Shown here piece after piece: positions 7,202 to 47,116 of a DNA stretch of 64,000 nucleotides. Within the stretch, counting starts at the first letter, position 1; every line of letters starts with the position of its first letter. Position numbers and translations under genes: made by a program. The stretch is from IMG/VR virus record IMGVR_UViG_3300025648_000013, one strand, 5' to 3'. The notes beneath the pieces were generated by a model. The model was not told where the DNA came from, made no database searches, and saw nothing but the letters and a program-made list of their open reading frames with translations. This DNA is from a virus.

Positions 7202-7271
7202 GGCTGGACTCCTTGTACGAGGACTAGAGTGGTTGGATACTGGTAATATCGTGAACCACAATATACTTATA
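7202..7271 (-). promoter_or_regulatory. late promoter plus two-hairpin endonuclease leader, copy 1
   Basis: TATAAGTA..GTGGTT-CAC-GATA-loop-TATC-C-AACCAC-TCTA..AGGAG..CAGCC-ATG. Confidence 0.8.
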
Positions 7272-7295
7272 TAAATTTTAATGTGAGGATTAACA

Positions 7296-7673
7296 ATGAC
7301 TAACTACGAAAAAGTAAAAGAGTTTCATACGGTGTTTGGTCAAGATGCTCCAGATACTCCAGGGTTTCCTGCAAAAGACGTTATTAAACTTCGCATAGAA
7401 CTGATTCGTGAAGAGTTTCAAGAGCTAAAGGATGCTATCAAGGATAAGGATCTTGTAGAAGTTGCCGATGCTCTGACTGACATTCTATATGTCACATATG
7501 GTGCTGGTATTGCTTTTGGCATCGATCTGGATGCTTGTCTAGCAGAAGTGCATCGTAGCAACATGACAAAGCTTGGTAAAGATGGTAAGCCTGTTCATCG
7601 CGAAGATGGCAAGATCATCAAAGGACCTCATTACGAAAAGCCAAATCTTAAGCCAATCCTAGGAGTAAACTGA
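7296..7673 (+). CDS. MazG/PRA-PH-like nucleotide pyrophosphohydrolase
   Basis: [30 protein letters not shown]. Confidence 0.88.
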
Positions 7674-8188
7674 TGGCTATTCTACCTCTTGTAGATAAGA
7701 ACGATCTTATTCTCAAAACAGAACTTGAATATTTTGATTTCAGCAATCCACCTACTGATCCTATTCAGTTGGCTCGTGATCTAGCTGAGACTATGATTGA
7801 GAACAAAGGCTTGGGGCTTGCTGCGAATCAGGTCGGTCTGCCCTATCGTGCATTTGTCATCAATGGCGAACAGATTCTTGCATGTTTCAACCCAAAAATC
7901 GTTGACTCTTCCGCCGATCAAGTGTATATGTTAGAAGGCTGCTTAAGTCATCCTGGGCTATCTGTAAAGATCAAACGTCCAGCTGTGATCAAAGTTCGCT
8001 TTACTGTGCCTAATGGTGAGACTAGAACAGAAAAGTTTGAAGGGCTAACGGCTCGTGTATTTCAACATGAACTAGATCATCTAAACGGCATTGTCCATAT
8101 CAATCGTGCTAGTGTGATTCATAAAGAACAAGCTTTCAAGCAAATGAAAGCGTTCAACAGAATCAATAAGAAGCTAGCCATCGCATAA
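7673..8188 (+). CDS. def: peptide deformylase
   Basis: GLGLAANQVG, EGCLS, QHELDHLNG. Confidence 0.95.
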   Translation: MAILPLVDKNDLILKTELEYFDFSNPPTDPIQLARDLAETMIENKGLGLAANQVGLPYRAFVINGEQILACFNPKIVDSSADQVYMLEGCLSHPGLSVKIKRPAVIKVRFTVPNGETRTEKFEGLTARVFQHELDHLNGIVHINRASVIHKEQAFKQMKAFNRINKKLAIA

Positions 8189-8201
8189 TACGGAGTACAT
8201 T

Positions 8202-8552
8202 ATGGAAGACAATAAGTCTGTAGTTGATGAGTCTACTGAGTACGAAAGTCTGATTGACTCAAAAGATATCTCTTACGGTGTGTCTACTCTAGATGCATTC
8301 TTATCTGAAGATGAAACTTTGGAACAAGATGATGTGAAGTGGAAGAAGCATTGGGTAGGAATGCCTGAGTTTAAGCAAGAGACTAATCCACCATACAAGC
8401 AGATTTATGTAAGCTTCCGTAACAAGGAAGACTATGAAGAGTTTGCCAAGTTGATCGATCAGCATCTTACTATCAAAACAAAAAGTATCTGGCATCCAAA
8501 GCTAGATCGCGATGCAAACGCGCTTCGTCGATGGATTGAAACTGATGACTAA
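8202..8552 (+). CDS. hypothetical protein, partner of the downstream glycosyltransferase
   Basis: WVGMPEF..VSFRNKEDYEEFAKLIDQ..TKSIWHP; overlaps the next gene. Confidence 0.55.
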   Translation: MEDNKSVVDESTEYESLIDSKDISYGVSTLDAFLSEDETLEQDDVKWKKHWVGMPEFKQETNPPYKQIYVSFRNKEDYEEFAKLIDQHLTIKTKSIWHPKLDRDANALRRWIETDD

Positions 8553-9459
8553 TCCAAAATATCCTGTTTATATCATTAGTAAAGGTCGGCATGAATCAAT
8601 GCTGACCTCTCGCTCATTGGCACGAATGAAAGTGCCACATTACATTGCGATTGAACCACAAGACGAAGCGCTATACGAACAAGCACTAGACAACTTTGGT
8701 ATTCGCGAATATGTAACTCTGCTTGTTGCACCTTTCAGTAATCATGGTGACGGACCAGGGCGTGCTAGAAACTGGTGCTGGGATCATTCTATCTCTATTG
8801 GTGCAACTAGCCACTGGGTAATGGATGACAACATTACAGACTTCTATCGCCTTCATGAAAACAGCCGCATTCGTGTTGAATCTGGTGTAATCTTCAAAGC
8901 TGCTGAAGACTTTGTTGATCGGTATGAAAATGTTCCTATCTCTGGTTTTCAATATCGTTTCTTTATTGCTCCTAATCAGAAGTATCCACCGTTTGTTACA
9001 AACACTCGTATCTACTCCACGTTGCTTATCCGAAATGATTGTAAGCATCGCTGGCGTGGTCGTTACAACGAAGATACTGATATCTGCCTTCGTGTATTGA
9101 AAGATGGTGATTGCACCATTCAGTTCAATGCCTTTCTTCAAGGCAAAGCTGCAACACAGACTGTCAAAGGTGGTAACACTGCTGAGTTTTATCATGCTGA
9201 AGGCACACAAGACAAGGCTCAATGGAGAGATGGCCAGCTTAATCCAGAGGGAACAATCAACAAGTCACAAATGCTCGTAGACATGCATCCAGACGTGGCC
9301 CGCATGGTATTTCGCTACGGTAGATGGCATCATTACGTTGACTATGGTCCATTCAAGAAGAATCAACTAAAACTTAAGTCAGATGTTGATCTAAAGTCTA
9401 TGCCTAAAGTCAACAACTATGGTATGAAACTAGTTCGTTTGAAGAAAGAAGATATATAA
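8545..9459 (+). CDS. GT-A fold glycosyltransferase (TAGT/GREB1-like), candidate DNA hypermodification enzyme
   Basis: PVYIISKGR, ARNWCWD, HWVMDDNI, RGRYNEDTD. Confidence 0.75.
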   Translation: MTNPKYPVYIISKGRHESMLTSRSLARMKVPHYIAIEPQDEALYEQALDNFGIREYVTLLVAPFSNHGDGPGRARNWCWDHSISIGATSHWVMDDNITDFYRLHENSRIRVESGVIFKAAEDFVDRYENVPISGFQYRFFIAPNQKYPPFVTNTRIYSTLLIRNDCKHRWRGRYNEDTDICLRVLKDGDCTIQFNAFLQGKAATQTVKGGNTAEFYHAEGTQDKAQWRDGQLNPEGTINKSQMLVDMHPDVARMVFRYGRWHHYVDYGPFKKNQLKLKSDVDLKSMPKVNNYGMKLVRLKKEDI

Positions 9460-9911
9460 TGCATAAGTGGACTCGGCGTCATTTGGATACGGCTAAGAAT
9501 ATCTCAACTTGGTCAAAAGATCAATCTAAACAGATTGGTGTTGTTGCTATTGGAAAAAACAACAATGTTCTAGCCACAGGCTATAATGGATTTCCAAGAG
9601 GCATCAAAGATGATCATCGTTTGAACGATCGTGAGACGAAGTATAAGTATGTCGTTCACGGAGAAATGAACTGCATCTATAATGCTTGCTTGAATGGCAT
9701 TTCTCTTGACGGAGCCAAACTATACGTGTATGGTTTACCTGTATGCTCTGAATGTTGCAAAGGTATCATTCAAGTTGGCATCAGAACTGTTATTGCAGAA
9801 GTTCCTAAGAATCTGCCTGAATACTGGAAAGAATCCACAAAACTCGCTAAAGACATTCTTGAAGAAGCGGGTGTGATTTATCTGCAATATGAAATGGAAG
9901 GTGAAGAATGA
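9459..9911 (+). CDS. cd: dCMP deaminase
   Basis: TGYNGFPRG, HGEMN, PVCSEC. Confidence 0.9.
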   Translation: MHKWTRRHLDTAKNISTWSKDQSKQIGVVAIGKNNNVLATGYNGFPRGIKDDHRLNDRETKYKYVVHGEMNCIYNACLNGISLDGAKLYVYGLPVCSECCKGIIQVGIRTVIAEVPKNLPEYWKESTKLAKDILEEAGVIYLQYEMEGEE

Positions 9912-10399
9912 GTGAAAGTGATGGATTAAATCCAGTTGGTCTTGGAATAGAAACTTGGGAGGACTTTGTAAGACGGCAGGTAGCAGACAGCCCGTATAAA
10001 CGCCCAATCGACACATATTTGGCAGATGAACTTAATCGTAAAGAAATGGAAAAACACCATAATCAATATACTGAAGAAACTAATGAAGAGTTTTTTCGTA
10101 GAATACAACCATCAAAAATCGATTATAAATACAATGAAGACAAAGCGCTTCAAGAAATCGCCGATTATATCGATAAGACATACGGTGAGCATTACTCCCA
10201 GAACAAGTATCAAGCTACAGAGTTCATCATTGATGGCGGTCACGGAACAGGTTTCTGTATCGGCAATGTGTTGAAGTATGCACAACGATACGGCAACAAA
10301 GGAGGATCACAAGATTGGCGTAAAGATTTGATGAAAGTGATCCATTACGCTATTATACAACTACATGTACATGATCTAGAATATGGAGAAAATCACTAG
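9908..10399 (+). CDS. DUF3310-like (T7 gp1.7-like) putative nucleotide kinase
   Basis: TYGEHY..GFCIGNVLKYAQRYGNKGG..DLMKVIHY. Confidence 0.65.
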   Translation: MSESDGLNPVGLGIETWEDFVRRQVADSPYKRPIDTYLADELNRKEMEKHHNQYTEETNEEFFRRIQPSKIDYKYNEDKALQEIADYIDKTYGEHYSQNKYQATEFIIDGGHGTGFCIGNVLKYAQRYGNKGGSQDWRKDLMKVIHYAIIQLHVHDLEYGENH

Positions 10400-10410
10400 T
10401 CTAGTCTTTA

Positions 10411-10482
10411 TATAAGTAATAGTGTAGGTCGCGGAGACTCCCCAGAATCCCACCTACTCTATTGCTAATATGGAGCAACAGC
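10411..10482 (+). promoter_or_regulatory. late promoter plus two-hairpin endonuclease leader, copy 2
   Basis: TATAAGTA..GTAGGT-CGC-GGA-loop-TCC-C-ACCTAC-TCTA-TTGCT..GGAGCAA-CAGC-ATG. Confidence 0.8.
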
Positions 10483-11175
10483 ATGATTACATATACGCCC
10501 TATACATATCTAATAGGATGGTCTAAACAAGACAGATGGTACTATGGTGTTCGCTACGCCAGAGGATGTCATCCAAATGAACTTTGGATTAAATATTTTA
10601 CTTCTTCTAAGCATGTGAAGAAGTTTAGAATAGAACACGGCGAACCCGATGTTATTCAGATCAGAAAAATCTTCGATTCAAAAGAATCTGCTGGCATATG
10701 GGAACACCGTGTCATAAGAAGAATGAATATGGTGAAATCCAATAGATGGCTAAACAAATCTGACACTAAAATACATGACAGAACTGGATGTAATCATAGT
10801 GTTGAAACAAAAGAAAAACTGTCTATCAAAAGAAGACAGAGAGAATCTAGTGGAATGCTTGGACACAAGCACTCAGATGAAACTAAAAGACAATATAGTT
10901 TAGTTAGAAGTTCTGCTATGCGGAATAAAACTAAACAAGAACGTAATGATATGCTTAATGCGGCAAGATCAAAGGTTCAAGAGATGATTATTCCAGGCAA
11001 AGGATTACCTTGGCAGGATAAAGTGAATAAGAACCCAGATAAGATTCGAAAGTCTACTCTTTCAAATACTGGAAAGAAAAGGACTCCAGAACAAAAACAA
11101 AGAATGAGTGAAGCAAGAAAGCTTTATTTAATGAAAAGGAAAGAAATAATGACAACTGAAATGGAGAATAAATAA
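10483..11175 (+). mobile_element. free-standing GIY-YIG (Seg-like) endonuclease (HE2)
   Basis: YTPYTYLIGW..YYGVR..YFTSS..WE..WLN; NUMOD3-like HSxETK repeats. Confidence 0.85.
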
Positions 11176-12137: not shown

Positions 12138-12212
12138 TTTAATCCCTGCTGTTTGTTATAACGGTGTTTCCAGAGTGATCTTTGGAAACACCACATTGAA
12201 AAGGATGATACT

Positions 12213-14709: not shown

Positions 14710-14722
14710 GGACGTAAATGAA

Positions 14723-15349
14723 CTATATGAATGTGGCTCCAAAGGACTTCAACTTATAGACTGAGATGCCCGTTGACCTGGACGCACTTTTCATACTGTA
14801 ATATCTAACTCCCGCATACAACACCTCCCTAGAGTTAGATAATCCTAGTTTAGACACTCTTTCTAGTTGACTAGAAGTAAAGGTTCTCTTGAGATTAGAT
14901 CGACCAGTGTGCCATTCTTTAGGAATATGATCATACTGGTCGATTCTTTTGTTCTCATTACCATTAGTGATCCATATCTTCTTACACATCGCCGTTGATC
15001 TTTTGTTGTTTGCGATGGGAGTATGTGATGCTGCTAACATATATCTGTCGTTTATTACGGATCTATTGTCTGTCTTGTTCAGCCATGTGTCTTTAGTAGA
15101 CACATTCATTCTACGCAAAACTTTATGTTCCCAATCTAATGCTTGGATGCGATCAGAAAATGTTCTTCTAATCAAAATCACATCGGGTTCACCATTTTCT
15201 TCACGAAACATCTTGACATACTTGGATGATGTGTAGTATGATGTCCATAGATCGTTCGGATGACAACCTTTCGCAAAGCGAACACCATAGTACCATTTGT
15301 TGAGTTTAGACCAACCAATGAGATATGTATAGGGCGTATAAGTAGTCAT
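14723..15349 (-). mobile_element. free-standing GIY-YIG endonuclease (HE3, same N-domain family as HE2)
   Basis: YTPYTYLIGW..YYGVR..TSS; WITNG and C-terminal HTH-like segments. Confidence 0.85.
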
Positions 15350-15420
15350 GCTGGAATCTCCCAAGTTTCTAGAGTAGATGGGTTTCTTGGTCGTCACCGC
15401 GATCTACATTAGTATTTATA
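15350..15420 (-). promoter_or_regulatory. late promoter plus two-hairpin endonuclease leader, copy 3
   Basis: TATAAATA..GTAGAT-CGC-GGT-loop-ACC-C-ATCTAC-TCTA-GAAACTTGGGAGATTC-CAGC-ATG. Confidence 0.8.
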
Positions 15421-16922: not shown

Positions 16923-17672
16923 ATGTCAATGCACAAGTTTGGTCACTTTCTAAGAGAAGATATCTCTCTTACGTTTCAGTATCATGATGAGTTGAATCCT
17001 CTTATCTGGGATGGTGATGAACTAAAGCAGAACATCAAAGAACGTCTTCTATTGATTGGTAGAATGTTTGCTGTGTTTGCCAATATTCCAGAAGATGCTA
17101 TCAAAGACATCGTGTTCACTGGTGGCAATGCAAACTATAACTATACACCACATTCCGATCTAGACGTTCATCTACTGATCAACATTCCAAAGATTCCAGG
17201 TATCAACCGCGTGTATCTTGATGATTATCTTTATGATAAGAAACTGTTATGGGGATACAAACATCCATCGCTGACTGTCATGGGATATCCTGTTGAACTA
17301 TATGCGCAGAGTTATAGAGAGAAGTTGGTGTCACCTAAAGCAAATCGTGGTGTCTACTCTCTAATGCAAGACAAGTGGCTGTTCAAGCCAAGAAAAGAGA
17401 AGCCAGGTGACTTTCACAATGACACAGGCTTTAAGAATAGACTTGAACATCTAATCAAACAGATCGAAGATGTTCTCACAAAGACTGGTGACCATAGCGA
17501 AGACATTAAGCGCCTCAAGATCAAGATCCGCAATATGAGAACTGCCGGCATCCATAAAGCAGGCGAGTTGTCAACAGAGAATCTTCTGTTCAAAGAACTT
17601 AGAAATAAAGGATTTATATCTAAACTAAACGACTATATACAACAAGCCGAAGATTCTAGTCTGTCTTTATAA
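16923..17672 (+). CDS. Pol-beta-superfamily nucleotidyltransferase-like protein; last ~26 codons supplied by the HE4 element
   Basis: TGGNANYNY..SDLDVH, VELY. Confidence 0.7.
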   Translation: MSMHKFGHFLREDISLTFQYHDELNPLIWDGDELKQNIKERLLLIGRMFAVFANIPEDAIKDIVFTGGNANYNYTPHSDLDVHLLINIPKIPGINRVYLDDYLYDKKLLWGYKHPSLTVMGYPVELYAQSYREKLVSPKANRGVYSLMQDKWLFKPRKEKPGDFHNDTGFKNRLEHLIKQIEDVLTKTGDHSEDIKRLKIKIRNMRTAGIHKAGELSTENLLFKELRNKGFISKLNDYIQQAEDSSLSL

Positions 17673-18414
17673 TTTTTGGTATCAGTTTACTGTTTACTCC
17701 ACAGAAACGATCTTTATTTGCATAAAAGACATCTTTCTTGATACGAACCATTTTGTTTTCGTGTAAATCGTATGCAGTTATTCTGTCTTTTTGATTGTCT
17801 GACATTTTTTTCTTTGATTCGTCTGTGTGGATTTTTCCTAATTTTGCCTGTCTACATTTTTCCCGATGTTCGATCGATAATGTTTTACCTATACGAGATT
17901 TCAACTGTTCTTGCGTTAGTTTTCTTCCTTTTAATTTCTCAGAATGTTCTGGTCTCTTTTTTCCATACCAATAATGAAGTTCTCCCTTTTGACATTCGGA
18001 CATTTTGCATCTAGTTTCTTCTGTTATATTTTTTTTACTTTTAGATATTTTTTCTTTACATTCTTTAGACCGTTTGCTTCCATAATTTGGAGATAAATTT
18101 CCCTTTTTGCCAAACATAGGATGATTGTTTCCCGATGTTTGGCCAGTTGATGCATCTTCCATTATAAGATTTGCCCAGTTTGTAGATTCAACAATGTTGT
18201 TTTCTTTTGAGAATTTAAGTGCAAATTCTGTAGCAAGCTTTTGGCAATCAAATCCAAAAATTTCGACCGTTTTAGGATGTCCTTTGTGCTTTGTTATATG
18301 TCTTAGCCACAACTTTCCAGATCCTTTATATCTAAAAGGATCTTTCTTTTCTGTTTTGCCAAAATATTTAAGACCACAATGGTTACATTGTTTAATATAA
18401 AGATAAATAGTCAT
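17656..18414 (-). mobile_element. free-standing GIY-YIG endonuclease with NUMOD3 repeats (HE4)
   Basis: IYLYIKQCNHCGLKYFGKT..YKGSG..WAN; NHPMFGK repeats. Confidence 0.85.
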
Positions 18415-18479
18415 GCTGGAATCTCCTAAGTTTCTAGAGTCAGTAGGATGGCACTCCGTGACTGACACTTTTATTTATA
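18415..18479 (-). promoter_or_regulatory. late promoter plus two-hairpin endonuclease leader, copy 4
   Basis: TATAAATA..GTCAGT-CAC-GGA-GTGCCA-TCC-T-ACTGAC-TCTA-GAAACTTAGGAGATTC-CAGC-ATG. Confidence 0.8.
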
Positions 18480-18623: not shown

Positions 18624-20108
18624 ATGGATTATTATACAAACACATTCATGCAACGCGGCAAGATGTATGTACGCGGCATTCAAAACGGCAAACAAGTAAA
18701 GCAAGTTGTCAACTATAAGCCATATCTGTTTATTCCTACAACAGAACGTACGAAGTATAAAAACATCCATGGTTCTCCTGTGGGTAAGATCGACTTCGAT
18801 TCGGTTGATGATGCAAAAGAGTTTCAGAAAAAATATGAAAACATCGATGGAATGCCAATCTATGGCATGACTCATTTCATCTATCCATTCATGTATGACA
18901 CATTTCCAGGTGAAATCAAGTACGATCCTTCTGCAATCTCTGTTGTCAGTCTTGATATCGAAACTGTGGTTGGCGATGTAGATATTGCTACTGCCATTCA
19001 AACAACTCCAAATGAAGTGACTGCTATTACCATTTCGCGCAATGGTAAGAAAGCGGTGTTTGGTTGTGGAGATTATACACCACACGAAGACAACATCATC
19101 TACTACAAATGCAAAAATGAATACCAACTGTTTCAGAAGTTTCTAGATATCTGGAACTCCTATGATTATAGCCCAGATGTGCTGACTGGTTGGAACGTAG
19201 AGTTTTTTGACGTTCCCTATCTTGTTGGTCGCATTCGGATGGTTCTAGGAGAAGATGCTGCGAAGCGTCTTAGCCCATGGCAAATGCTTCGCGAGTATGA
19301 TGTTGAAATCAAGGGACGTAAGATGACATCATACTACATGATGGGCATCACTGTACTTGACTGGATGGCACTTTACAAGAAGTTTACATACACATCACAG
19401 GAATCCTATCGTTTGGATCATATTGCCAAGATCGAACTTGGTGATCAGAAGCTAGACTATAAATCACAAGGTTACACAAGTCTACAAGATTTGTATGAAA
19501 GAAACTTTCAGCTTTACGTTGAATACAACATCCATGACGTTCATATCGTTGATCGGCTAGAAGATAAGATGAAACTGATTGAACTGGTGTTTGCTATTGC
19601 TTATGACGCAAAGGTAAACTATCAGGATACACTAGCATCTGTGCGCCAGTGGGACGTAATCATCCACAACTATCTGATGCAACGAAATATCGTTGTAGAC
19701 AATCAGAAGAAATCTGGTCGTAGTGATGATAGTCTTGTTGGTGGTTATGTTAAAGATCCAAAAACAGGTATGCATCGTTGGATGGTTTCATTCGACCTTA
19801 ACTCTCTGTACCCACATTTGATTCAACAATACAACATCTCACCCGAGACGTTTGTTGAAAAGATGTGGGACTTCTTAAGCATCGATCAACTGTTGAGAGT
19901 TAGAGACACTGGGTTGCAAGGCTCTGAATACTCTTATGCAGCCAATGGTTGTGTATATCGCAAAGACAAGCAGGGCTTTCTTGGTGCTATCATGGCCAAG
20001 ATGTATGATGATCGTGTTATCTATAAGAAGCAGATGATCAAAAATAAAAAACTTCTAGAACAAATTGATTCTGAATTAAAATCAAGAAATCTACTACATA
20101 TGAACTAA
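18624..20108 (+). CDS. 43: DNA polymerase B, gp43A (exonuclease and palm motif A)
   Basis: DIET, GWNVEFFDVPY, SFDLNSLYP; ends inside the fingers domain. Confidence 0.95.
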   Translation: MDYYTNTFMQRGKMYVRGIQNGKQVKQVVNYKPYLFIPTTERTKYKNIHGSPVGKIDFDSVDDAKEFQKKYENIDGMPIYGMTHFIYPFMYDTFPGEIKYDPSAISVVSLDIETVVGDVDIATAIQTTPNEVTAITISRNGKKAVFGCGDYTPHEDNIIYYKCKNEYQLFQKFLDIWNSYDYSPDVLTGWNVEFFDVPYLVGRIRMVLGEDAAKRLSPWQMLREYDVEIKGRKMTSYYMMGITVLDWMALYKKFTYTSQESYRLDHIAKIELGDQKLDYKSQGYTSLQDLYERNFQLYVEYNIHDVHIVDRLEDKMKLIELVFAIAYDAKVNYQDTLASVRQWDVIIHNYLMQRNIVVDNQKKSGRSDDSLVGGYVKDPKTGMHRWMVSFDLNSLYPHLIQQYNISPETFVEKMWDFLSIDQLLRVRDTGLQGSEYSYAANGCVYRKDKQGFLGAIMAKMYDDRVIYKKQMIKNKKLLEQIDSELKSRNLLHMN

Positions 20109-20266
20109 CTTCGCCTGAAGGTGAGATATTCATTACAAATATATTGACAAATTTCTGTGAACAATATAAATTGGCATTTACAACACTATGGATAAACTCT
20201 GAAACTGGTCGAATTCCAGTTAAAGGTAGAAACAAAGGTTGGAAGTGTATTAAAATTAAGGATTAA
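20084..20266 (+). pseudogene. C-terminal relic of a homing endonuclease between the gp43 halves
   Basis: Start-less frame KKSTTYELTSPEGEIFITNILTNFCEQYKL..KGRNKGWKCIKIKD*. Confidence 0.65.
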
Positions 20267-20268: not shown

Positions 20269-21376
20269 ATGGATTTAACTACATTGACAAATGAGGAGAT
20301 CGCAGCGCTCCGTATGTCAACTGTTAAGGAGATCTCTCGCCTTGATAATCTTCAAATGGCGAAGAAGATTCAACTTAACAGTGCATACGGCGCGCTGGGT
20401 TAGCAACAAATACTTCCGTTGGTATGACATCAACCACGCTGAAGCTATTACTATGTCTGGCCAGCTTTCCATCCGCTGGATTGCTGATCGTATGAATGAA
20501 TACTTGAACAAGCTATGTGGTACGACAGACTATGATTATATCATTGCATCAGATACAGATTCTATCTATGTGACACTAGCACCTCTGGTCGACAAGATCA
20601 TGCCAGATGAAACGGACACAAAGAAGATCGTTGAAGTTCTAGATAAGTTTTGCCTTAGTAAGATTGAACCATTCATCGATAAAGCATATCTGGAACTATC
20701 TGTTCGGATGAATGCATATGCACAAAAGATGTTCATGAAGCGTGAAGCTATTGCCGATAAAGCAATCTGGACAGCAAAGAAGCGATACATCCTAAACGTC
20801 TGGAATCAAGAAGGGGTTGCATACGATTCGGCAAAGCTGAAGATGTCTGGCATTGAAGCGGTCAAATCATCAACACCACAATCTTGTCGTGATAACATTA
20901 AGAAGGCATTAAATCTTGTCATGAACGAAAGTGAAACGACACTGCAAACGTTCATCGCAGATTTCCGTAAAATGTTTACACAGTTGCCTTTTGAGGAAGT
21001 GGCATTCCCTCGTGGTGTCAGTGATCTAGACAAGTATGAAACCAAAGACATTGAAACGTATGCTTCTGGTACTCCTATTCATGTTCGTGGCAGTATTCTG
21101 TACAATCGTATGCTAGAGCGTCATGGACTAGGTAATAAATACGAGCAGATAACAAACGGTGATAAGGTGAAGTTCTGTTACATGAAAACACCTAATCCCG
21201 CTAGAACAAATGTCATCTCCTGTCCATCTGAGTTGCCATCAGAGTTTGATTTGGAGAAGTACATCGACTATCCAATGCAGTTTGATAAAGCGTTCATTGC
21301 ACCACTACAGGGCATTCTGGATGTGATTGGTTGGAAGTCAGAGAAGATCGCAACACTAGAGGACTTTTTCAGCTAA
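20269..21376 (+). CDS. 43: DNA polymerase B, gp43B, with 4 extra nt at about 20397-20404
   Basis: MDLTTLTNEEIAALR..KIQLNSAYGALG, then in the +1 frame (S)NKYFRWY..SDTDS..KKRY; AAGGA SD. Confidence 0.92.
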
Positions 21377-21681: not shown

Positions 21682-22797
21682 ATGAGCATTCTAGACAAAC
21701 TACGTAAAGCAAGCACAATCAAGGAAGCAGATGTGCTATCGGATTCCAAGTTCTTTAATAAGAAGGACATGATTCAGACTTCCATTCCCATGCTCAATGT
21801 TGCACTATCAGGTAGTCTAGACGGTGGTATTACACCAGGTCTAACTCTCTGGTGTGGTCCATCAAAGCACTTCAAGTCATTCTTCTGTCTTCTAGAAGTC
21901 AAAGCGTACCTTGACAAATATCCTGAAGCTATCTGTCTCTTTTACGACTCGGAGTTTGGTGCTGGTAAGAAGTATTTTGAAACCATTGGCATTGATACTA
22001 CTCGTGTTATTCATAGTCCAATCACCGACGTTGAACAGTTCAAGTTTGATGTTATGCAGCAACTTGAAGTGATTTCTCGTGGCGACAAGGTAATCATCTT
22101 TGTTGACTCTGTTGGTAACTTGGCTTCTAAGAAAGAAGTTGATGATGCCAAGGATGGCAAGTCTGTTTCAGATATGTCACGGGCGAAGCAGATCAAGTCT
22201 GTGTTTCGTATGATTACGCCACATCTAAACATCAAAGACATTCCAATGGTCGTTGTGAATCACACATATCAGACACAAGAAATGTACTCAAAGGCCGTCG
22301 TATCTGGTGGTACTGGTATCTACTATTCTGCTGATTCAATCTTCATCATTGGTCGTCAACAAGAGAAAGATGGCACCGAAGTCACTGGTTACAACTTCAT
22401 CATCAATGTTGAAAAGTCACGCCATGTTCGTGAAAAGTCCAAGATTCCTATTGAAGTTCGTTTTGAAGGTGGTATCTCAACATGGTCTGGTCTACTAGAT
22501 GTTGCTCTAGATTCTGGTCATATATTGAAATCTGGATCTTGGTATCAGATGGTGGATTTCGATACTGGAGAGATTTCAGATAAGAAAATCCGTGGAGGTG
22601 ATATTGAGAAGTCTGGATTTTACAAAAGACTCATCAAGGATTCGCGTTTCAAAGAGTTTATCGAAAAGAAATATATGCTTTCAAATGAAACAATGATAAC
22701 AGATGAAGAGATTGACGATTTTATAGACGATTATTGTTTATTAGGTGGGATGGCAGTCCGTGACCTACACTCTATTTATAAGAAAGACTTGATATGA
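21682..22797 (+). CDS. uvsX: UvsX RecA-like recombinase
   Basis: GPSKHFKS, YDSEFG, DSVGNLAS, SGGTG. Confidence 0.95.
   Translation: MSILDKLRKASTIKEADVLSDSKFFNKKDMIQTSIPMLNVALSGSLDGGITPGLTLWCGPSKHFKSFFCLLEVKAYLDKYPEAICLFYDSEFGAGKKYFETIGIDTTRVIHSPITDVEQFKFDVMQQLEVISRGDKVIIFVDSVGNLASKKEVDDAKDGKSVSDMSRAKQIKSVFRMITPHLNIKDIPMVVVNHTYQTQEMYSKAVVSGGTGIYYSADSIFIIGRQQEKDGTEVTGYNFIINVEKSRHVREKSKIPIEVRFEGGISTWSGLLDVALDSGHILKSGSWYQMVDFDTGEISDKKIRGGDIEKSGFYKRLIKDSRFKEFIEKKYMLSNETMITDEEIDDFIDDYCLLGGMAVRDLHSIYKKDLI
22742..22780 (-). promoter_or_regulatory. orphan, truncated copy 6 of the endonuclease leader, antisense to the uvsX 3' end
   Basis: TATAAATA-GAGT-GTAGGT-CAC-GGA-CTGCCA-TCC-C-ACCTA; second hairpin and ORF are missing. 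Confidence 0.75.
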
Positions 22798-27590: not shown

Positions 27591-27664
27591 GCCGATATAG
27601 TATAGTGGTATTACCGTGGATTTGTAACCCTCTGACAGGAGTTCGATTCTTCTTATCGGCACCA
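27591..27664 (+). tRNA. tRNA-Thr(TGT)
   Basis: GCCGATA/TATCGGC, TTCGA, ACCA; imperfect anticodon stem. Confidence 0.8.
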
Positions 27665-27692
27665 GACTATTTTGATGATCAAAATAGTTAAT

Positions 27693-27770
27693 GGAGCATA
27701 CGGCTAACGGGTTGGGTCACCTGATTTTCAGTCAGGAATAAAGTCGGTTCGAGTCCGACATGCTTCACCA
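27693..27770 (+). tRNA. tRNA-Glu(TTC)
   Basis: CCTGA-TTTTCAG-TCAGG, GGTTCGAG, ACCA. Confidence 0.85.
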
Positions 27771-27780
27771 AGTTTATTGT

Positions 27781-27857
27781 CTACCATTAGCACAGCCTGG
27801 TAGCGCATCTGCTTTGGGAGCAGAGGGTCGGGAGTTCGAATCTCTCATGGTAGACCA
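27781..27857 (+). tRNA. tRNA-Pro(TGG)
   Basis: CTACCAT/ATGGTAG, TCTGC-TTTGGGA-GCAGA, GTTCGAA, ACCA. Confidence 0.92.
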
Positions 27858-28476: not shown

Positions 28477-28513
28477 ATAATAAATAGAGTGTAATCTAAC
28501 ACTCAAGGAAATA

Positions 28514-32085: not shown

Positions 32086-32222
32086 TAAAACGCCTCGCGC
32101 CCCTGCTGCTCACCCTCGCACTGCCTGCCTGCGGGCTGCACCCGCTCTATTCGAATGGGTCACACGGCGCGGCCGGGCAGTTCCTCGGCGATGTCGGCGG
32201 AGGAGCCACTGCGGGCGTGTAA
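32082..32222 (+). pseudogene. lptE: truncated LPS-assembly lipoprotein LptE
   Basis: [23 protein letters not shown] (lipobox) directly after leuS; breaks after about 38 codons. Confidence 0.75.
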
Positions 32223-32242
32223 GGCTGTGGAGCCAGCATGAT

Positions 32243-32295
32243 ATGCCAACCTTGCTGCGCATTGGCGCGTTCCGCTTTTACTTTTTCAGCCACGA
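32243..32295 (+). pseudogene. 5' fragment of a DUF4160-like gene
   Basis: MPTLLRIGAFRFYFFSH, then a junction. Confidence 0.6.
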
Positions 32296-32800
32296 TACCG
32301 ACAATGAGGCTGACAATGTTGATATCTTGAGCCCGCTCGCACATCGCGAGGAGCAATCGAGCGACGTTGGGCGCGTGGATATCGACCCCGAACAAAATCG
32401 GCAATTGCTTGACAATAATCGTGATTGCCAAACCAAACGCGAAGCCCCGCAAAACGGGGCGTGCGATGAAGCCGGACAGACTGCCCAACCGCAAATAGCC
32501 GGCAGCCACAAAGATCACCCCGGTCAGCGCGACAATCAGCGTTGCGAATACTTCCGGAGCTTCAATGGTTGTTCCTAGCCCGCCGATGGCTGCGGCGAGC
32601 ATCGCCGCTGACGAGGAGGTTGGCGCGACAATCGCGAACCGGCTCGTTCCAACGAGTGCATAAACGAGCCCACCGATGATCGCGGCGAAAATCGCATGTT
32701 GCGGTGCAAACCCCGCAATCGCCGCATAGGCGACCGCTTCCGGCAACATCAACCCTGCAACCGAAACACCCGCAATGAGATCGGCGCTACGCCCGCTCAT
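32288..32800 (-). pseudogene. 5' part of a SulP-family anion transporter
   Basis: DLIAGVSVAGLMLPEAVAYA..GTSR..PTSS..FIARPVLRGF..KQLP; truncated. Confidence 0.85.
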
Positions 32801-42612: not shown

Positions 42613-42821
42613 TGTCTTTTAATCCTCGTCACGGTGGTCCTTATGATCGTGGTAGTGCTGATGCCTATTATGGTCGCCCCTACAAGCCACACTTTTATGA
42701 AAAAGCTACGTATGCATCACCTCTTGTGGAAAAGTCTGATATGACCCCAGAGCAGATTAAAGAATATGAGGTTGGCTTTTATGGGTTGACATCCATCGCG
42801 AATCGTGCTAGGTATACATAA
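42612..42821 (+). CDS. hypothetical protein
   Basis: RHGGPYDRGSADAYYGR. Confidence 0.65.
   Translation: MSFNPRHGGPYDRGSADAYYGRPYKPHFYEKATYASPLVEKSDMTPEQIKEYEVGFYGLTSIANRARYT
42786..42815 (+). promoter_or_regulatory. early promoter with GANTC spacer
   Basis: TTGACA..CGAATCG-TGC-TAGGTA. Confidence 0.65.
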
Positions 42822-42839
42822 TAGAAAACGGAGATTGTC

Positions 42840-43076
42840 ATGAACGCAGATTATTTTTCAATTTCAACAGACACATCTTTCATGAACGATGTCTGCACTG
42901 CTTCCAAGATGATCCTAAACACTCCAGAGAACGTTCGCGATATTCCCTGCGATACATGCCCGAACGCTGACATATGCGCTCTGGCCGTGACTGACTGCGT
43001 TGCATCTCGTGTTTGGTACACTACTGGTGATTTTCTTGACAAAGACGTTGCGCGTCTCATCCGAAAGGCTAAGTGA
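42840..43076 (+). CDS. small Cys-rich protein
   Basis: PCDTC..C..DC. Confidence 0.55.
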   Translation: MNADYFSISTDTSFMNDVCTASKMILNTPENVRDIPCDTCPNADICALAVTDCVASRVWYTTGDFLDKDVARLIRKAK

Positions 43077-43193
43077 TGGAAACGGAAAAATCATTCTCAT
43101 CCTTTGAAGCACTAACACACTTCTCAGAAGTATATGATCTACTTGACAATATTACATATTATGATCCTATTCGCGGTTGGGTGTTGATTCTCG

Positions 43194-43604
43194 ATGAAGA
43201 TTTCGATGAAGATTATGAAGGTCCTCAGCAAGGTTGCTGAAGCCTCGGAACCGTTTGCTAGGGCCAAGATAGCCGCTGCTCTCGTTTACAAAAACGAAAT
43301 CATCGCGATTGGCACTAACAAGAACAAAACGCATCCACTTCAAGGCAGATATGCAAAACATGAAGAAGCTATATATCTTCATGCAGAAATAGATGCAATC
43401 GCTAACGCACTGCGTAGGCATGATGCTGATACCGTGGCTAAATCCAAACTCTACATCTATCGGTGTAAGTGGACACATAGCAAGAAACCTATGATCACTC
43501 AGGGATTGGCTAAGCCGTGTGAAGGCTGTATGCGCGCTATTGCAGCGTTTGATATCAAGCATGTTTGTTATACATTAGAGGACGAAGGTTATGAGTGGCT
43601 ATAA
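43194..43604 (+). CDS. zinc-dependent nucleoside/nucleotide deaminase-like protein
   Basis: LHAEIDA, AKPCEGC. Confidence 0.8.
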   Translation: MKISMKIMKVLSKVAEASEPFARAKIAAALVYKNEIIAIGTNKNKTHPLQGRYAKHEEAIYLHAEIDAIANALRRHDADTVAKSKLYIYRCKWTHSKKPMITQGLAKPCEGCMRAIAAFDIKHVCYTLEDEGYEWL

Positions 43605-44137
43605 TGGGTAAACGAAGTGACTTTGACAGAGTAGAACGTGACTTCTATCCTACTCCGATGAAAGCCGTTCTGCCTCTGTTGCCACATCTGAAGAAGTATT
43701 CTAACTTCTATGAACCATGCGCTGGCGATGGCAGATTGATTGATCATCTTGATTATCACAATCATACTTGTATTGAAGCATGGGATATTGAACCACAAGA
43801 AAAGTGGATTCTACAGTCAAATGCTCTTGACATTCAGTTCAATCCAGTATATTATGGATGGAATATAGATTACATCATCACCAATCCACCTTGGGATCGC
43901 AAGATTCTTCATCCCATGATCGAACACTTCAGCAATCAACTTCCCACTTGGTTGCTGTTTGATGCAGACTGGATGCACACCAAGCAATCATCCGCGCTGA
44001 TGAAACGCTGCGAAATGGTTGTATCTGTGGGTCGTGTAAAGTGGATTGAGGGAAGTAAGACAAGCGGGAAAGACAACTGTGCTTGGTATCTGTTTACAAA
44101 TACAACAAACGCTAAAACTGTTTTTTATGGAAGGTAA
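43604..44137 (+). CDS. DNA amino-methyltransferase (probably N6-adenine)
   Basis: DFYPTP, EPCAGDG, ITNPPW. Confidence 0.85.
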   Translation: MGKRSDFDRVERDFYPTPMKAVLPLLPHLKKYSNFYEPCAGDGRLIDHLDYHNHTCIEAWDIEPQEKWILQSNALDIQFNPVYYGWNIDYIITNPPWDRKILHPMIEHFSNQLPTWLLFDADWMHTKQSSALMKRCEMVVSVGRVKWIEGSKTSGKDNCAWYLFTNTTNAKTVFYGR

Positions 44138-44370
44138 TGATTATGGATAAGTTTATTATTGGTTTGTTTACTGTTTTTGGCACTATCGTTCTCGGTTGTG
44201 CTTATGGTCTGCTGATGGCATGGCCTGTTATGTGGCTATGGAATGCTGATCTTGTTCCTGCTATGACTATTTTGCGCCCTATTGGTTGGATTCAAGCATG
44301 GTGCATCTCGATTCTAGTATCGCTTCTTGGTTCTCATGTGAGTGTGAGTAAAGATTGGAGTAAGGATTAA
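44137..44370 (+). CDS. small membrane protein
   Basis: WPVMWLWN..IGWIQAW. Confidence 0.6.
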   Translation: MIMDKFIIGLFTVFGTIVLGCAYGLLMAWPVMWLWNADLVPAMTILRPIGWIQAWCISILVSLLGSHVSVSKDWSKD

Positions 44371-44372
44371 TC

Positions 44373-44687
44373 ATGGCAATCTTTATTATTGAAACTGTTT
44401 CTTCACACCGTATGCGTTATGCGGTAGAAGCACATACTCTTGAAGATGCTAAGAATGAAGTTGCCCTTAAGACATCATTCTATGATGATGACTGGCGTGA
44501 AATGTCACAATATCATATTGGTGAAGTTATCTCCAGTGGTCATGAAGTCACACCTGAAGAATATTTGACTATGTTCGATGAGGACAACGATTATCTCCGA
44601 GACGCATGGCAAGATGAACGTAAGTTTCAACAGATCAATCATATCGAGTATCCTGGCATCAAGGCTATCGATCTGGACGATATCTGA
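44373..44687 (+). CDS. hypothetical protein
   Basis: ETVSSHRMRYAVE. Confidence 0.6.
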   Translation: MAIFIIETVSSHRMRYAVEAHTLEDAKNEVALKTSFYDDDWREMSQYHIGEVISSGHEVTPEEYLTMFDEDNDYLRDAWQDERKFQQINHIEYPGIKAIDLDDI

Positions 44688-44966
44688 TTTTTTCTGAAAA
44701 AACTGGTTGACATTTATCTCCCTTTTGCTATGATGAGTTATCAGAGAGCGAGAGGGAGATTTTTTATGATCAAGGTTGGTGATTCGGTCCGTTCGTGCAT
44801 TTGGCCCAACAAAGATCGCGTTGGTGTTGTCGCTGAGATTGACGGCGCTCTAATCTCGGTGTTTTTCGGTCGTGAACATGCCCCGCCCTTTCCTGATCCA
44901 TTCTGGTTGTACTGCAAAGAAGAACTGAGGGCCGTTGATCCTCTTGAACTGTATAAGTGAGGCTTT

Positions 44967-45536
44967 ATGATTGATCCTGATGTGTATGAAGATGCGTATG
45001 GTCGTCGCGGCTGCAATCCTGTTGATTGTATGTCCTGTGGTGGCAGTGGTGTAGAATATGGTGAAACTTGCATCACTTGTGGTGGTGAAGGTTTCCTGAT
45101 CGATGACGAGGAAGCTATCCTGCAAGATCGTAACATCGTTGAACTGATTCTGGATGAAAAACTGGATGACATCAAGGCTCATCTGCCCGCCGAAGATCGT
45201 GATCGTCTGACTCAGTTTGAGAGCAATATCCATTTTGATATTGCTCGTCGCGTAAGGCTGATTGGCATGAAGCTGGAATATCTCCGTGAGCGTGGTATTG
45301 ATCGTAAAACGTTTGCAATCGATCCGAAGCACAGTGTTGGTGTTGATGCTTTCCTGCGTAGTGTTGGTGTTGATGCTTTCATGCGTCCTATTATTTTCAA
45401 GAACTTTGATAACGACATTATCAGTGGTCTGAAGATTGGTGAAGACGTTCGCAACACGATCCGCAATAACCTTGGTCGCACGGCAAAGTACGAAGCGATT
45501 CGTGATGCTTGGTTTCCTGGTGTAATCTTTAACTAA
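44967..45536 (+). CDS. hypothetical protein with DnaJ-type CxxCxGxG motifs
   Basis: CMSCGGSG, CITCGGEG; 27-nt tandem duplication at 45333-45386. Confidence 0.6.
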   Translation: MIDPDVYEDAYGRRGCNPVDCMSCGGSGVEYGETCITCGGEGFLIDDEEAILQDRNIVELILDEKLDDIKAHLPAEDRDRLTQFESNIHFDIARRVRLIGMKLEYLRERGIDRKTFAIDPKHSVGVDAFLRSVGVDAFMRPIIFKNFDNDIISGLKIGEDVRNTIRNNLGRTAKYEAIRDAWFPGVIFN

Positions 45537-45761
45537 GGATGTTCGCGGTGGTAAAGATTCGGTGTAAAAATACGGGTGAGGTGTATGAAGCTGTAGAAAA
45601 CTATAGCGGAGGCACATATAAACAGAAGCGGGGTACTTTTCGCCCATTGCTTCTAGAAGAATGGATTGAAATATCCTGATATCGCCCTGCCTTTTCTCTT
45701 GACAGTTTGTTTTATTTTTGTTACACATTGCGTATACAAGATGTACGAAAGGTCTCTGTAA

Positions 45762-46316
45762 GTGAATATCTTTTATATCGATGAGTCTGCACAGCAATGC
45801 GCTGAGTGGATGGTTGATAAACATTGCGTCAAGATGATCGTTGAGACGGCACAACTGTTGTCTACTGCACATCGCATTCTTGACGGTGATGAGTATGTTG
45901 GTGAATCTAAAACTGGTCGTAAAGCAAAGCGTTGGCGATTGAATGATGGTCGTCAAGATGTTTTGTATTCTGCTAGTCATATCAATCACCCTTCTGCTGT
46001 GTGGGTGCGACAGTCGGTAGAAAACTATAACTGGCTTGTAGATCATCTGTTTGCTCTTGGCGATGAGTACACTTATCGTTACGGCAAGAAACATTCGACA
46101 ATCGAAAAGCTTGGTTATCAGTTGCAGTCTCCACCTTACAAGTTGAAAGAATGGGACTGGACTCCAATGCCTTGCTGTATGCCAGACGAATACAAAGTGT
46201 CAGATGATCCTGTATTGAACTATCGAAACTATTATGTCAATGCGAAGGCATATCTGAAAAGTTATAAGAATCGTCAACCACCGCCATGGTGGCCAGACGA
46301 TTCTGGTGTCTTTTAA
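45762..46316 (+). CDS. pyrimidine-dimer glycosylase/DenV-related protein; 3' end supplied by the HE5 element
   Basis: MNIFY..DKHCVKMIVETAQLLSTAH..HINHPSAVW..EYTYRYGKKH. Confidence 0.75.
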   Translation: MNIFYIDESAQQCAEWMVDKHCVKMIVETAQLLSTAHRILDGDEYVGESKTGRKAKRWRLNDGRQDVLYSASHINHPSAVWVRQSVENYNWLVDHLFALGDEYTYRYGKKHSTIEKLGYQLQSPPYKLKEWDWTPMPCCMPDEYKVSDDPVLNYRNYYVNAKAYLKSYKNRQPPPWWPDDSGVF

Positions 46317-47049
46317 AATTACCAGGGTCGTACATTTTACCACAGTGCTTACATTCTATTTTTGCTGGTTTGGTAAATGATGTAACTTTACGTCCCTTTC
46401 TACTCCTTAGAATTTTTAATTCTTTGGCACGCTCTTCTCCGTGAATTTCTTCATACGTTTTCCCTTTGAGATATTCTTTCGAAACGCCAGTGGTACGTTT
46501 TCGTATTTGTTCTTTTAGCACTTGCGCCTTTTCCTCGCCGTAAATCTCCTCATATCTCTTACCCTGTCTTTTGGAACGCAGAGCGTCTTTCGTAATTTCT
46601 GTATGATGCTTTCCAAGCATTCCTCTCGGATGAGTTTTATCTGGACTTTTATTCCACGACATTAACGAGTTGCTGTCCAATTCTTCTTTCATTTTATCAC
46701 TCCGGCGCTGTCGTCTATTTTTGGTCCAGTATTTTTTCGCGCCTTCTTGCATCTTTTGTTTTTGTACGGTGGATCTTGGAGAACTATTACCCTCTCCACC
46801 CTCGCATACATTATGCAATATTCCGTTTGGATCTATATTTTTCCTACCATACCACCTAATATATCGTCTTTCAAGAGCACATGCTCCTACATTACTAAGG
46901 CGTGTTTCGAGAAATACAATTTTAGATGTGTCTTTAGGAGTAGATATTCTACCATGATCTATAAATGCCCTTGTGCCTTTACCTTTACCGATATAGTATG
47001 GTGTGTTAGCCGAAGATCGTAAATAGGCATATACGTAATAAATAAACAT
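46237..47049 (-). mobile_element. free-standing GIY-YIG endonuclease (HE5, same family as HE1)
   Basis: [34 protein letters not shown]; YEEIxG repeats. Confidence 0.88.
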
Positions 47050-47116
47050 TGCTGGTGCTCCTTAATAGCAGTAGTGCGGTTGGACATGCCACTGTCGCGA
47101 ACCGTATCTATTTATA
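47050..47116 (-). promoter_or_regulatory. late promoter plus two-hairpin endonuclease leader, copy 5
   Basis: TATAAATA..CGGTT-CGC-GACA-GTGGCA-TGTC-C-AACCG..CTA-CTGCT..GGAGCAC-CAGCA-ATG. Confidence 0.8.

Follow-up and report, generated by a model that had tools for sequence, protein, structure and literature searches.

The DNA analyzed here is a stretch of 64,000 nucleotides (the window) from the IMG/VR virus record IMGVR_UViG_3300025648_000013 and is, judging from its sequence, that of an uncultured aquatic T4-like myophage. A UvsX-like recombinase, a gp41-type helicase (55% identity to the helicases of the OM43 phage Melnitz and of cyanophages), a clamp loader, a gp46-like protein, a DNA polymerase and other T4 core functions are encoded in it, and the nearest related record is the IMG/VR contig G001 (61.9 kb), which has 24% of sampled 31-mers in common with the window. 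The genomes of T4-like phages are crowded with homing endonucleases, selfish enzymes that cut DNA, and the window contains five full copies (c1-c5) and one relic (c6) of a cassette of about 82 bp to which the first four codons of a free-standing endonuclease gene are fused. On the endonuclease strand the cassette comprises a late promoter, a hairpin P1, the bases TCTA, a second hairpin P2 holding the Shine-Dalgarno sequence, and CAGC shortly before the ATG; on the opposite strand a promoter-like box lies across codons 2-4. A preliminary description of this DNA had reported the six sites as a structured leader of GIY-YIG endonuclease genes; all six are present as it described, and its plan of the leader is right for the copies, the box on the other strand having escaped it (Table 1).

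The pattern TATAARTA-N(2-12)-TCRCG has 7 matches in the window against 0.07 expected. The seventh, at 9642(+), lies within a dCMP-deaminase-like coding frame, has no stem and was rejected as a copy. A covariance model of hairpin P1 (R1), run over the whole 64 kb with filters off, returned the five full copies at 53-70 bits and the relic weakly, with no scoring site beyond c1-c6. A second model (R2), built from a gap-free seed, describes the full antisense strand, by which we mean the strand opposite to the endonuclease gene; it matches c1-c5 and gives no match at c6. Only c2 is co-oriented with its neighbouring genes.

The open reading frames (ORFs) behind c1-c5 fall into three groups by their N-terminal domains, as had been proposed: c1 and c5 are 65% identical over the first 89 aa, c2 and c3 63% identical over about 100 aa, and c4 stands apart. 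The second hairpins of c3 and c4 differ by one base despite the dissimilarity of their ORFs, again as previously noted. The GIY-YIG label given to these ORFs is supported by their N-terminal Y..Y/YIGKG-type motifs, by matches to phrog_314 (a 'homing endonuclease' family; ORF c1 matches it together with phrog_15526), by NUMOD3 motifs and by Seg-like homologues of ORF c1 found with tblastn; the Pfam GIY-YIG profile itself is not reached by any of the five. Searches of PDB sequences with the endonuclease ORFs gave no informative match. ORF c4 lies directly upstream of the DNA polymerase gene (18624-20108, DNA_pol_B).

At the relic the deletion junction falls at the 3' end of P1, and TCTA, P2, CAGC, the box and an ORF are all absent from the site. 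Read on the plus strand, the same DNA supplies the last ~21 codons (YCLLGGMAVRDLHSIYKKDLI) of the uvsX-like ORF (region 22697-22797), in which an acidic DEEIDDFIDD stretch resembling a native C-terminus precedes the c6-derived codons and the stop overlaps the start of gp41 (ATGA). We best read c6 as the scar of an inverted cassette lost from between uvsX and gp41, a core gene having apparently taken up the remains of the lost endonuclease cassette at its 3' end.

Table 1. Cassette copies, their parts, the predicted antisense RNAs and the endonuclease ORFs in the window. Parts are listed in the direction of the strand given; bits are scores of models R1 and R2.
Feature	Position	Strand	Details
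Cassette c1	7189-7271	-	R1 60.4 bits; R2 57.6 bits, 7189-7271(+)
c1 parts		-	late promoter TATAAGTA 7271-7264; P1 7259-7229; TCTA 7228-7225; P2 7224-7207; CAGC 7206-7203; ATG 7201; box TACTTAT 7196-7190 (AATAAGTA on +)
c1 antisense box AATAAGTA	7189-7196	+	6 nt upstream of predicted RNA
c1 predicted antisense RNA	7203-7271	+	two-hairpin fold, -15.1 kcal/mol; predicted start at G of GCUG, then P2', P1' and U-rich tail ending within 7263-7271
Endonuclease ORF c1	6623-7201	-	192 aa; GIY-YIG-like N-terminus (MNTYYVYAY...YYIGKGK)
Cassette c2	10411-10495	+	R1 69.6 bits; R2 69.6 bits, 10411-10495(-)
c2 parts		+	late promoter TATAAGTA 10411-10418; P1 10424-10457; TCTA 10458-10461; P2 10462-10478; CAGC 10479-10482; ATG 10483; degenerate box TACATAT 10488-10494 (TATATGTA on -)
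c2 predicted antisense RNA	10411-10482	-	fold -23.1 kcal/mol, z = -2.26; box off consensus
Endonuclease ORF c2	10483-11175	+	230 aa; begins MITYTPYTYLIGW; Pfam NUMOD3; phrog_314
Cassette c3	15337-15420	-	R1 62.7 bits; R2 60.2 bits
c3 parts		-	late promoter TATAAATA 15420-15413; P1 15407-15374; TCTA 15373-15370; P2 15369-15354; CAGC 15353-15350; ATG 15349; box TACTTATA 15344-15337 (perfect TATAAGTA on +)
c3 predicted antisense RNA	15350-15420	+	predicted from fold, box and spacing
Endonuclease ORF c3	14723-15349	-	208 aa; phrog_314, phrog_37840
Cassette c4	18402-18479	-	R1 53.1 bits; R2 62.1 bits
c4 parts		-	late promoter TATAAATA 18479-18472; P1 18466-18439; TCTA 18438-18435; P2 18434-18419; CAGC 18418-18415; ATG 18414; box TATTTAT 18409-18403 (GATAAATA on +)
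c4 predicted antisense RNA	18415-18479	+	-15.8 kcal/mol, z = -1.56; fold.((((((.((....)).)))))).((((((.(((......)))...)))))) then tail ACUUUUAUUUAUA
Endonuclease ORF c4	17656-18414	-	252 aa; MTIYLYIKQC...; two NUMOD3 motifs (Pfam 6.9e-16); phrog_314
Cassette c5	47037-47116	-	R1 64.5 bits; R2 58.0 bits
c5 parts		-	late promoter TATAAATA 47116-47109; P1 47105-47076; ACTA 47075-47072; P2 47071-47055; CAGC 47054-47051; ATG 47049; box TATTTAT 47044-47038 (AATAAATA on +)
c5 predicted antisense RNA	47051-47116	+	fold -19.1 kcal/mol
Endonuclease ORF c5	46237-47049	-	270 aa; phrog_15526
Relic c6	22741-22780	-	promoter TATAAATA 22780-22773 and P1 alone; R1 10.4 bits

The cassette is widespread in uncultured viruses. 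A pattern scan of IMG/VR yielded at least 116 stretches, and R1 then gave at least 123 matches (108 distinct) from 100 sources, with at least 65 more in a second set; overall, at least about 160 distinct copies were found in IMG/VR viral contigs, five further ones being carried by G001. The flanks are T4 core genes (terminase, uvsY/uvsW, gp23, gp15). Relative to the adjoining genes, about 75% of cassettes are inverted: the upstream neighbour lies on the opposite strand at 74 copies and on the same strand at 24, the downstream neighbour at 67 and 17, respectively, and the next gene on the main strand typically starts 10-70 nt past the sense promoter. Among the IMG/VR matches listed, 96 downstream ORFs were tabulated, of which 35 match NUMOD3, at least 10 HNH, 5 GIY-YIG/SegE, 2 a TnsA-like nuclease domain and 2 DUF7487. 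The cassette is thus a head of unrelated nuclease families (GIY-YIG/SegE, HNH, TnsA-like and others), which bears out the earlier proposal that the leader shuffles as its own module, independently of the ORF behind it. Cultured phages yielded a single, diverged match, in Pseudoalteromonas phage vB_Psh_XG4 (PP712099.1 56131-56218, loci L253 and L255, 40 bits), where P1 is intact, TGTA stands for TCTA and CCAC for CAGC, consensus boxes are missing, and the gene that follows encodes a homologue of endonuclease c1 (65% identity, 85 aa). Scanning the cultured phages S-PM2 (AJ630128), S-SRM01 and Melnitz with the models gave no copy, a near-identity search of cultured phages with 20 kb of the window returned nothing, and blastn with a consensus-like cassette against cultured phages returned chance matches only. 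At the gathering thresholds of Rfam 15 the whole window contains three tRNAs and no other match, and in E-value mode c2 and c4 gave only chance matches to miRNA and lncRNA families, far below the thresholds of those families. The preliminary description had recognised no named RNA family, in agreement with these searches, and the cassette is, on sequence grounds, a candidate new RNA family.

The alignment of these copies places the cassette under strong structural selection. In the 108 distinct copies found with R1, 97.6% of P1 cells are paired and 302 cells have changed on both sides, and none of 500 shuffles matches the observed percentage paired, the doubly changed cells or the covariation score. 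The covarying stems reported for the two parts of P1 from the window copies are therefore correct and hold across 108-126 distinct copies from other viral contigs, and the covariation whose absence from a larger alignment had been named as grounds for refuting a function is present. Hairpin P2 is homologous in all copies when anchored right after CTA and right before CAGC; the four outer positions form Watson-Crick pairs in 60-82% of copies (26-43% when shuffled), with all four pair types represented. R2 recovers 130 copies (126 distinct) with 19 pairs and 2363 cells, of which 98.7% pair and 611 are doubly changed; 18 of the 19 pairs covary, at a level reached by none of 500 shuffles, and sliding the partners against each other as a control lowers pairing to 31-53%. 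These R2 values come from an alignment fitted to the model, and the anchor-based counts of P2 and of wobble pairs are independent of that fit. Between the two parts of P1, the preliminary description had seen a C-loop-like 3x1 internal loop of the form CRC/Y. The counts at this site (G-C 99, A-C 37, A-T 20, G-T 1) identify it instead as a covarying purine-pyrimidine (R-Y) pair between two invariant single-base bulges, which are C on the endonuclease strand and G on the antisense strand. A scan that made no assumption about the loop still showed C-R-C/Y in almost every true copy and covariation of the closing pairs, and the invariance of the loop is therefore no artefact of the search pattern.

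The non-Watson-Crick pairs indicate which strand carries the fold. As read on the endonuclease strand, P1 has 12 A.C cells and no G.U, the outer four pairs of P2 have 58 A.C and 1 G.U (62 A.C over five pairs), and the central R-Y pair has 37 A.C and 1 G.T. In the R2 alignment, 252 of the 2363 paired cells (~11%) form G.U in the antisense fold where the mRNA would have an A.C mismatch, and the converse hardly occurs; the first P1 pair of c5, A.C on the minus strand and G.U on the other, is an example from the window. Since an A.C on the endonuclease strand is a G.U on the opposite one, the fold has been selected on the opposite strand. When antisense wobble pairs are allowed, P2 pairs 0-3 form in 97.5, 93, 87 and 82% of copies, against 82, 60, 79 and 77% with sense wobble pairs. 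Co-oriented cassettes (15 A.C vs 0 G.U) and inverted ones (48 vs 1) have the same bias, which is hence no by-product of mutation linked to transcription of the main strand: selection has acted on the antisense fold in either orientation of the cassette. The antisense fold is also the more stable one in 101 of 105 copies, with a mean z-score after shuffling of -1.73 against -1.16 for the sense fold; the G+U-rich composition of the antisense strand was considered as the cause and rejected, the lead of that strand in z-score persisting after shuffling. Finally, the conserved CTA/CAG bases pair on the antisense strand as CUG/UAG (C-G, U-A, G.U), extending the antisense counterpart of P2 (P2') to 8 bp.

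These observations bear directly on the reading put forward in the preliminary description, in which the hairpins act within the late mRNA of the endonuclease, P1 as a protein-bound or 5'-stabilising element and P2 as a mask of the ribosome-binding site. Several features suit it: the promoter lies 4-5 nt from P1, which by -10 geometry (PMC2988020) would make P1 a 5'-terminal hairpin, P1 is almost wholly Watson-Crick on the mRNA strand too, the Shine-Dalgarno sequence sits in the loop and 3' arm of P2, and endonuclease genes of T-even phages are known to have inhibitory leader structures (PMC3014915). On the mRNA, however, P2 falls to 3-4 bp that CTA/CAG cannot close, the sense folds of the window copies reach z-scores of only -0.2 to -1.3, and a frame-independent TATTTAT at a fixed distance from CAGC, described below, is left unexplained. 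With wobble positions, relative stability and CTA/CAG pairing all favouring the opposite strand, we consider a structured endonuclease mRNA leader distinctly unlikely. Stems that are almost always strictly Watson-Crick or G.T would suit DNA as well as RNA, and the element is part of a mobile cassette, so that hairpins in single-stranded DNA of the template strand, serving recombination, replication priming or cassette mobility, were also considered. Homing by double-strand-break repair requires no hairpin borne by the element, however, no conserved cassette boundary, target duplication or associated enzyme acting on single-stranded DNA was seen, and on each strand a promoter-like box adjoins the fold at the distance of a start site, an arrangement that suggests RNA ends. 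We regard a role in DNA as highly improbable, and the earlier suggestion that the structure is an end used when the element moves found no support in any test run.

In 147 of 165 copies, 3-7 nt (mode 5) separate the end of the sense promoter TATAA(A/G)TA from P1, and P2 is wholly downstream. Because the T4 late promoter is an 8-bp box at -10 (PMC2988020), this spacing predicts that the late mRNA starts at the foot of P1. The promoter had already been placed upstream of both hairpins, an arrangement that the scheme of T4 I-TevI does not fit, and this is what the copies show. In a sub-family (L163, L167, L196, L235) an extra small hairpin, ATATGTTATCTAAACATAT, lies between the late promoter and P1, and some loci, L063 and L064 among them, have the sense promoter embedded in a perfectly palindromic sequence (TATTTATAAATA or TATTTATATAAATA), which presents TATAAATA on both strands and would provide divergent late promoters for the endonuclease and the neighbouring phage gene.

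On the opposite strand of codons 2-4 the copies carry an NATAA(A/G)TA box, 5-6 nt before GCUG. Of 105 copies, 64 match its heptamer ATAAATA exactly and 91 with no more than one mismatch. The distance to CAGC is 5 nt in 64 copies and 6 nt in 31, these two spacings accounting for 95 of the 105. The spacing of the corresponding TATTTA(T/C) is independent of reading frame: it is kept in genes beginning ATG-ACT-ATT-TAT, ATG-ATA-TTT-ATT or ATG-TAT-TTA-CAA, in genes with the ATG upstream of CAGC, and in HNH-type genes starting MIFID or MYLQ. Being constant whatever the frame or the position of the ATG, this distance marks the box as an element of the cassette at the nucleotide level. The box is equally common in the two orientations, occurring in 32 of 42 co-oriented cassettes and 68 of 102 inverted ones. 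Within the window, the heptamer ATAA(A/G)TA is found 36 times on the plus strand and 6 times on the minus strand, five of those six being cassette promoters; forms in which N is not T stand directly upstream of late-type genes at 28479, 36685, 57337 and 59421 (+), and TATAAGTA and NATAAATA serve upstream of window genes beside TATAAATA. T4 late promoters tolerate A at -13 (PMC2988020) and S-PM2 uses NATAAATA (PMC2984593). The strand bias of the heptamer inside ORFs is modest over all loci (2.2:1), and the argument that it has been purged from non-coding strands therefore rests mainly on the window. By its distribution the heptamer is behaving as a promoter signal in the window phage, and the box would then be, at the level of sequence, a second promoter within the 5' end of the gene that points back over its leader. 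The predicted start, 6 nt past the box, is the G of GCUG, one base before P2'. At the other end, past the antisense counterpart of P1 (P1'), the antisense strand reads A(C/U/A)UUUUAUUUAUA, the reverse complement of spacer plus sense promoter; where the spacer is long (promoter 8-24 nt away), a U-run still directly follows P1' in 5-7 of 18 copies.

A box at codons 2-4 might alternatively act by pairing. In a temporal mask of the T4 style, the promoter octamer UAUAAAUA would pair with AUUUAU(A) of codons 2-4 in early read-through RNA, and this helix (P0) would close a three-way junction around the ribosome site, from which late transcripts, starting inside P0, would be free. Masking of this kind is established in the cases of gene e, I-TevI and mobE (PMC3014915), the two boxes are reverse complements by construction, and c1 and c2 combine TATAAGTA with C at the matching downstream position. 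Across the copies, however, covariation in P0 is not significant (G/C 2, G/T 3, A/C 14, A/T 103; Fisher p = 0.13), a dedicated scan for variants with G (TATAAGTA copies) brings the contrast to about 3 vs 5 lineages with no significant association, and both wobble directions are seen. P0 was rejected as a helix. It would in any case consist of 6-7 A-U pairs closing a multiloop, and most cassettes are inverted, which leaves no sense-strand read-through to mask. We therefore judge a temporal mask very unlikely.

The reading that we favour, at a little short of an even chance, is that convergent late promoters, one per strand and about 75 bp apart, give rise to the endonuclease mRNA and to an antisense RNA of ~60-70 nt over its leader and Shine-Dalgarno sequence. 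The late mRNA on the gene strand would begin at the foot of P1 and run through P1, TCTA, a short P2 with the Shine-Dalgarno sequence and CAGC to the AUG. Firing of the antisense box would produce a compact RNA of two hairpins, consisting in order of a G, P2' (8 bp, with CUG/UAG, an invariant G.U and an anti-Shine-Dalgarno CUCCU in the loop), one A, P1' (11-12 bp, with the two invariant bulged G) and a U-rich tail in which transcription would stop. This RNA would be fully complementary to the 5' untranslated region of the endonuclease mRNA, starting 0-3 nt ahead of the AUG, taking in the Shine-Dalgarno sequence and reaching the mRNA 5' end, and its pairing with the leader could block ribosome binding or trigger decay, keeping the nuclease low. 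That the cassette is tied to nuclease genes of unrelated families supports a role in nuclease control. More tentatively, and with somewhat less confidence than in the antisense transcript itself, we propose that the cassette represents an undescribed family of small phage antisense RNAs, a portable governor of at least four nuclease families (GIY-YIG, HNH, TnsA-like and DUF7487) in which a conserved protein of phage or host would dock at the bulged G's around the covarying pair.

Several observations weigh against this antisense reading. The antisense box overlaps the conserved I-Y codons of GIY-YIG enzymes, so that its conservation could partly be protein-level, the exact heptamer is missing in about a third of copies, and the box of c2 is degenerate. 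P1' was not called by a consensus terminator scan; its stem of 11-12 bp has two bulges and the U-rich tail begins 2 nt past it, and because of this it would be a modest intrinsic terminator at best; the tail, moreover, owes most of its sequence to the sense promoter. Simple antisense pairing gives no reason for the invariant bulged bases. In the inverted cassettes, the antisense strand is the main transcribed strand, and the fold could act in long transcripts.

The last point amounts to an explanation in its own right, in which no separate small RNA is involved and the fold serves longer transcripts of the main strand. It could there terminate or attenuate transcription, insulate, direct processing or, as a 5' leader, stabilise the RNA of the next phage gene, and in this last case the antisense box would give late transcription of the downstream gene. 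The prevalence of inverted cassettes and the short distance to the next main-strand gene agree with it, as do the palindromic TATTTATAAATA double promoters at some loci and the relic c6, which retains only P1' and the tail, directly before gp41. A strong sigma-70-like promoter follows the cassette in 18 of 153 loci, against 2.4 expected, in a composite resembling the terminator-promoter units known as PeSLs (PMC4122927). Most loci, however, have no separate promoter for the next gene, so that an efficient terminator there would be harmful, and fold, wobble bias and box are equal in the ~25% of cassettes that are co-oriented and have no downstream gene on that strand. The downstream genes belong to every temporal class and function, for which a single leader with invariant bulges is hard to justify, and the association is with nuclease genes, not with any neighbour. 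We consider action within long transcripts unlikely, though less so than the other alternatives.

The antisense control proposed here would be of a kind already known, the cis-antisense restraint of a mobile element's nuclease, to which the cassette would add a variant. In IS10/Tn10, RNA-OUT is a 69-nt RNA complementary to the translation initiation region (Simons and Kleckner 1983; PMC5006887). Like RNA-IN/RNA-OUT, the cassette concerns the gene for a mobile element's DNA-cutting enzyme with a second, convergent promoter (here a predicted one) inside its 5' end and a small folded counter-transcript, again predicted here, over the translation initiation region; a back-pointing box, a selected antisense fold and complementarity over the initiation region are seen in the sequence, and control that strengthens with copy number, a feature of IS10, would be a trait in common. 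Unlike in IS10, both boxes are of the phage late type, the element is a homing-endonuclease cassette of T4-like phages, and its RNA, known here from sequence, is predicted to have two hairpins, invariant bulges and an anti-Shine-Dalgarno loop. In the T-even masks (gene e, I-TevI, I-TevII/III, mobE of Aeh1, segB), the promoter lies inside the 5' arm of the hairpin over the ribosome-binding site, which the late RNA escapes (PMC3014915). These share with the cassette the endonuclease genes, the TATAAATA late promoter, a structure at the ribosome site and a nuclease that is kept off or low; in the cassette, by contrast, the promoter lies outside both hairpins (before P1 in the 147 of 165 copies mentioned above), and the selected fold is on the other strand. 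In the mRNA, only the last two bases of the Shine-Dalgarno sequence would sit in a sense-strand P2 of 3-5 bp.

Closest by description are the hairpins that Dassa et al. 2009 (PMC2677866) reported beside TATAAATA upstream of free-standing GIY-YIG and Vsr-like endonucleases in marine metagenomes. In that report, two complementary conserved motifs form the stem, which is common to different endonuclease families, the endonucleases are co-oriented between the halves of split-intein genes, and the hairpin is interpreted as acting on translation in the mRNA. As in our material, the DNA is aquatic and phage-like, and one locus without an endonuclease keeps the hairpin, like relic c6; that study contains no analysis of strand or covariation, and the flanks tested here hold no split-intein genes. 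A fractured-gene or split-intein setting was indeed rejected for our co-oriented cassettes, whose flanks are ordinary T4 core genes free of intein halves. Judged by description, the hairpin of Dassa et al. probably represents this element or one related to it. In cyanophage S-PM2, experiments have detected CfrI, an antisense RNA that faces the 5' portion of a free-standing homing-endonuclease gene; it is ~225 nt long and runs on into psbA (Millard et al. 2010; PMC2984593, PMC5931967). Both cases concern RNA antisense to a homing-endonuclease gene in a T4-like phage, marine in that instance, detected there and predicted here; neither R1 nor R2 has a significant match in the S-PM2 genome (AJ630128), and CfrI is therefore not of the same RNA family. 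The PeSLs of T4-like phages combine sigma-70 early promoters with simple G/C stems, flank ORFs of hyperplastic regions and have no tie to nucleases (PMC2839356, PMC4122927). They resemble the cassette in being short, portable units of stem-loop and promoter repeated across a T4-like genome, and differ from it in stem consensus and in that the boxes of the cassette are of late type; a reading as a PeSL-like terminator with an early promoter was rejected, the sigma-70-like promoter mentioned above being present at only ~12% of loci. No account of the strand assignment, the second box, the bulged pair or the breadth of nuclease families was found in the searchable literature.

To our knowledge, the tolerance of phages for homing endonucleases has been explained only for a few T-even cases, by a hairpin at the ribosome-binding site that is opened by a late promoter. 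An ~82-bp module common to hundreds of endonuclease genes from unrelated catalytic families of uncultured aquatic phages, and with a fold selected on the opposite strand, points to a different and apparently widespread solution, in which the regulatory head evolves as a mobile module of its own and takes the first four codons along. If the proposed antisense family is real, it would be the first general antisense control system for homing endonucleases, and inhibition may depend on copy number ('multicopy' inhibition) as the phage genome replicates. In practice, R1 and R2 together provide a sharp marker by which free-standing endonuclease cassettes, and relics of them, can be annotated in phage contigs from metagenomes, and the compact promoter/antisense unit could possibly be used as a tight governor of late-phase expression.

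Further features of the window lie outside the cassettes. On the minority strand directly downstream of endonuclease c5, a 414-aa frame (44850-46094, minus strand) without a Pfam or PHROG match overlaps plus-strand ORFs that do have matches (45762-46316, phrog_624, 1.8e-53), and is either a spurious frame or one that travels with the cassette as an unknown passenger. Two ORFs on the plus strand encode the family-B DNA polymerase (gp43), the first (18624-20108, 494 aa), with cassette c4 just upstream, comprising the exonuclease and the N-terminal polymerase part, and the second (20291-21376, 361 aa) the C-terminal part (profile positions 527-851). The gap of ~180 nt between them contains a terminator-like hairpin (20110-20125) and a promoter-like TTGACA-17-TAAATT (20144-20172). 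Another minority-strand ORF of 217 aa (32147-32800, minus strand) matches Pfam Sulfate_transp (3.9e-30, profile 3-170 of 380) and no PHROG, and may be a truncated transporter gene of host origin. The three tRNA genes (Rfam tRNA, 41-57 bits) are clustered at 27591-27854 on the plus strand.

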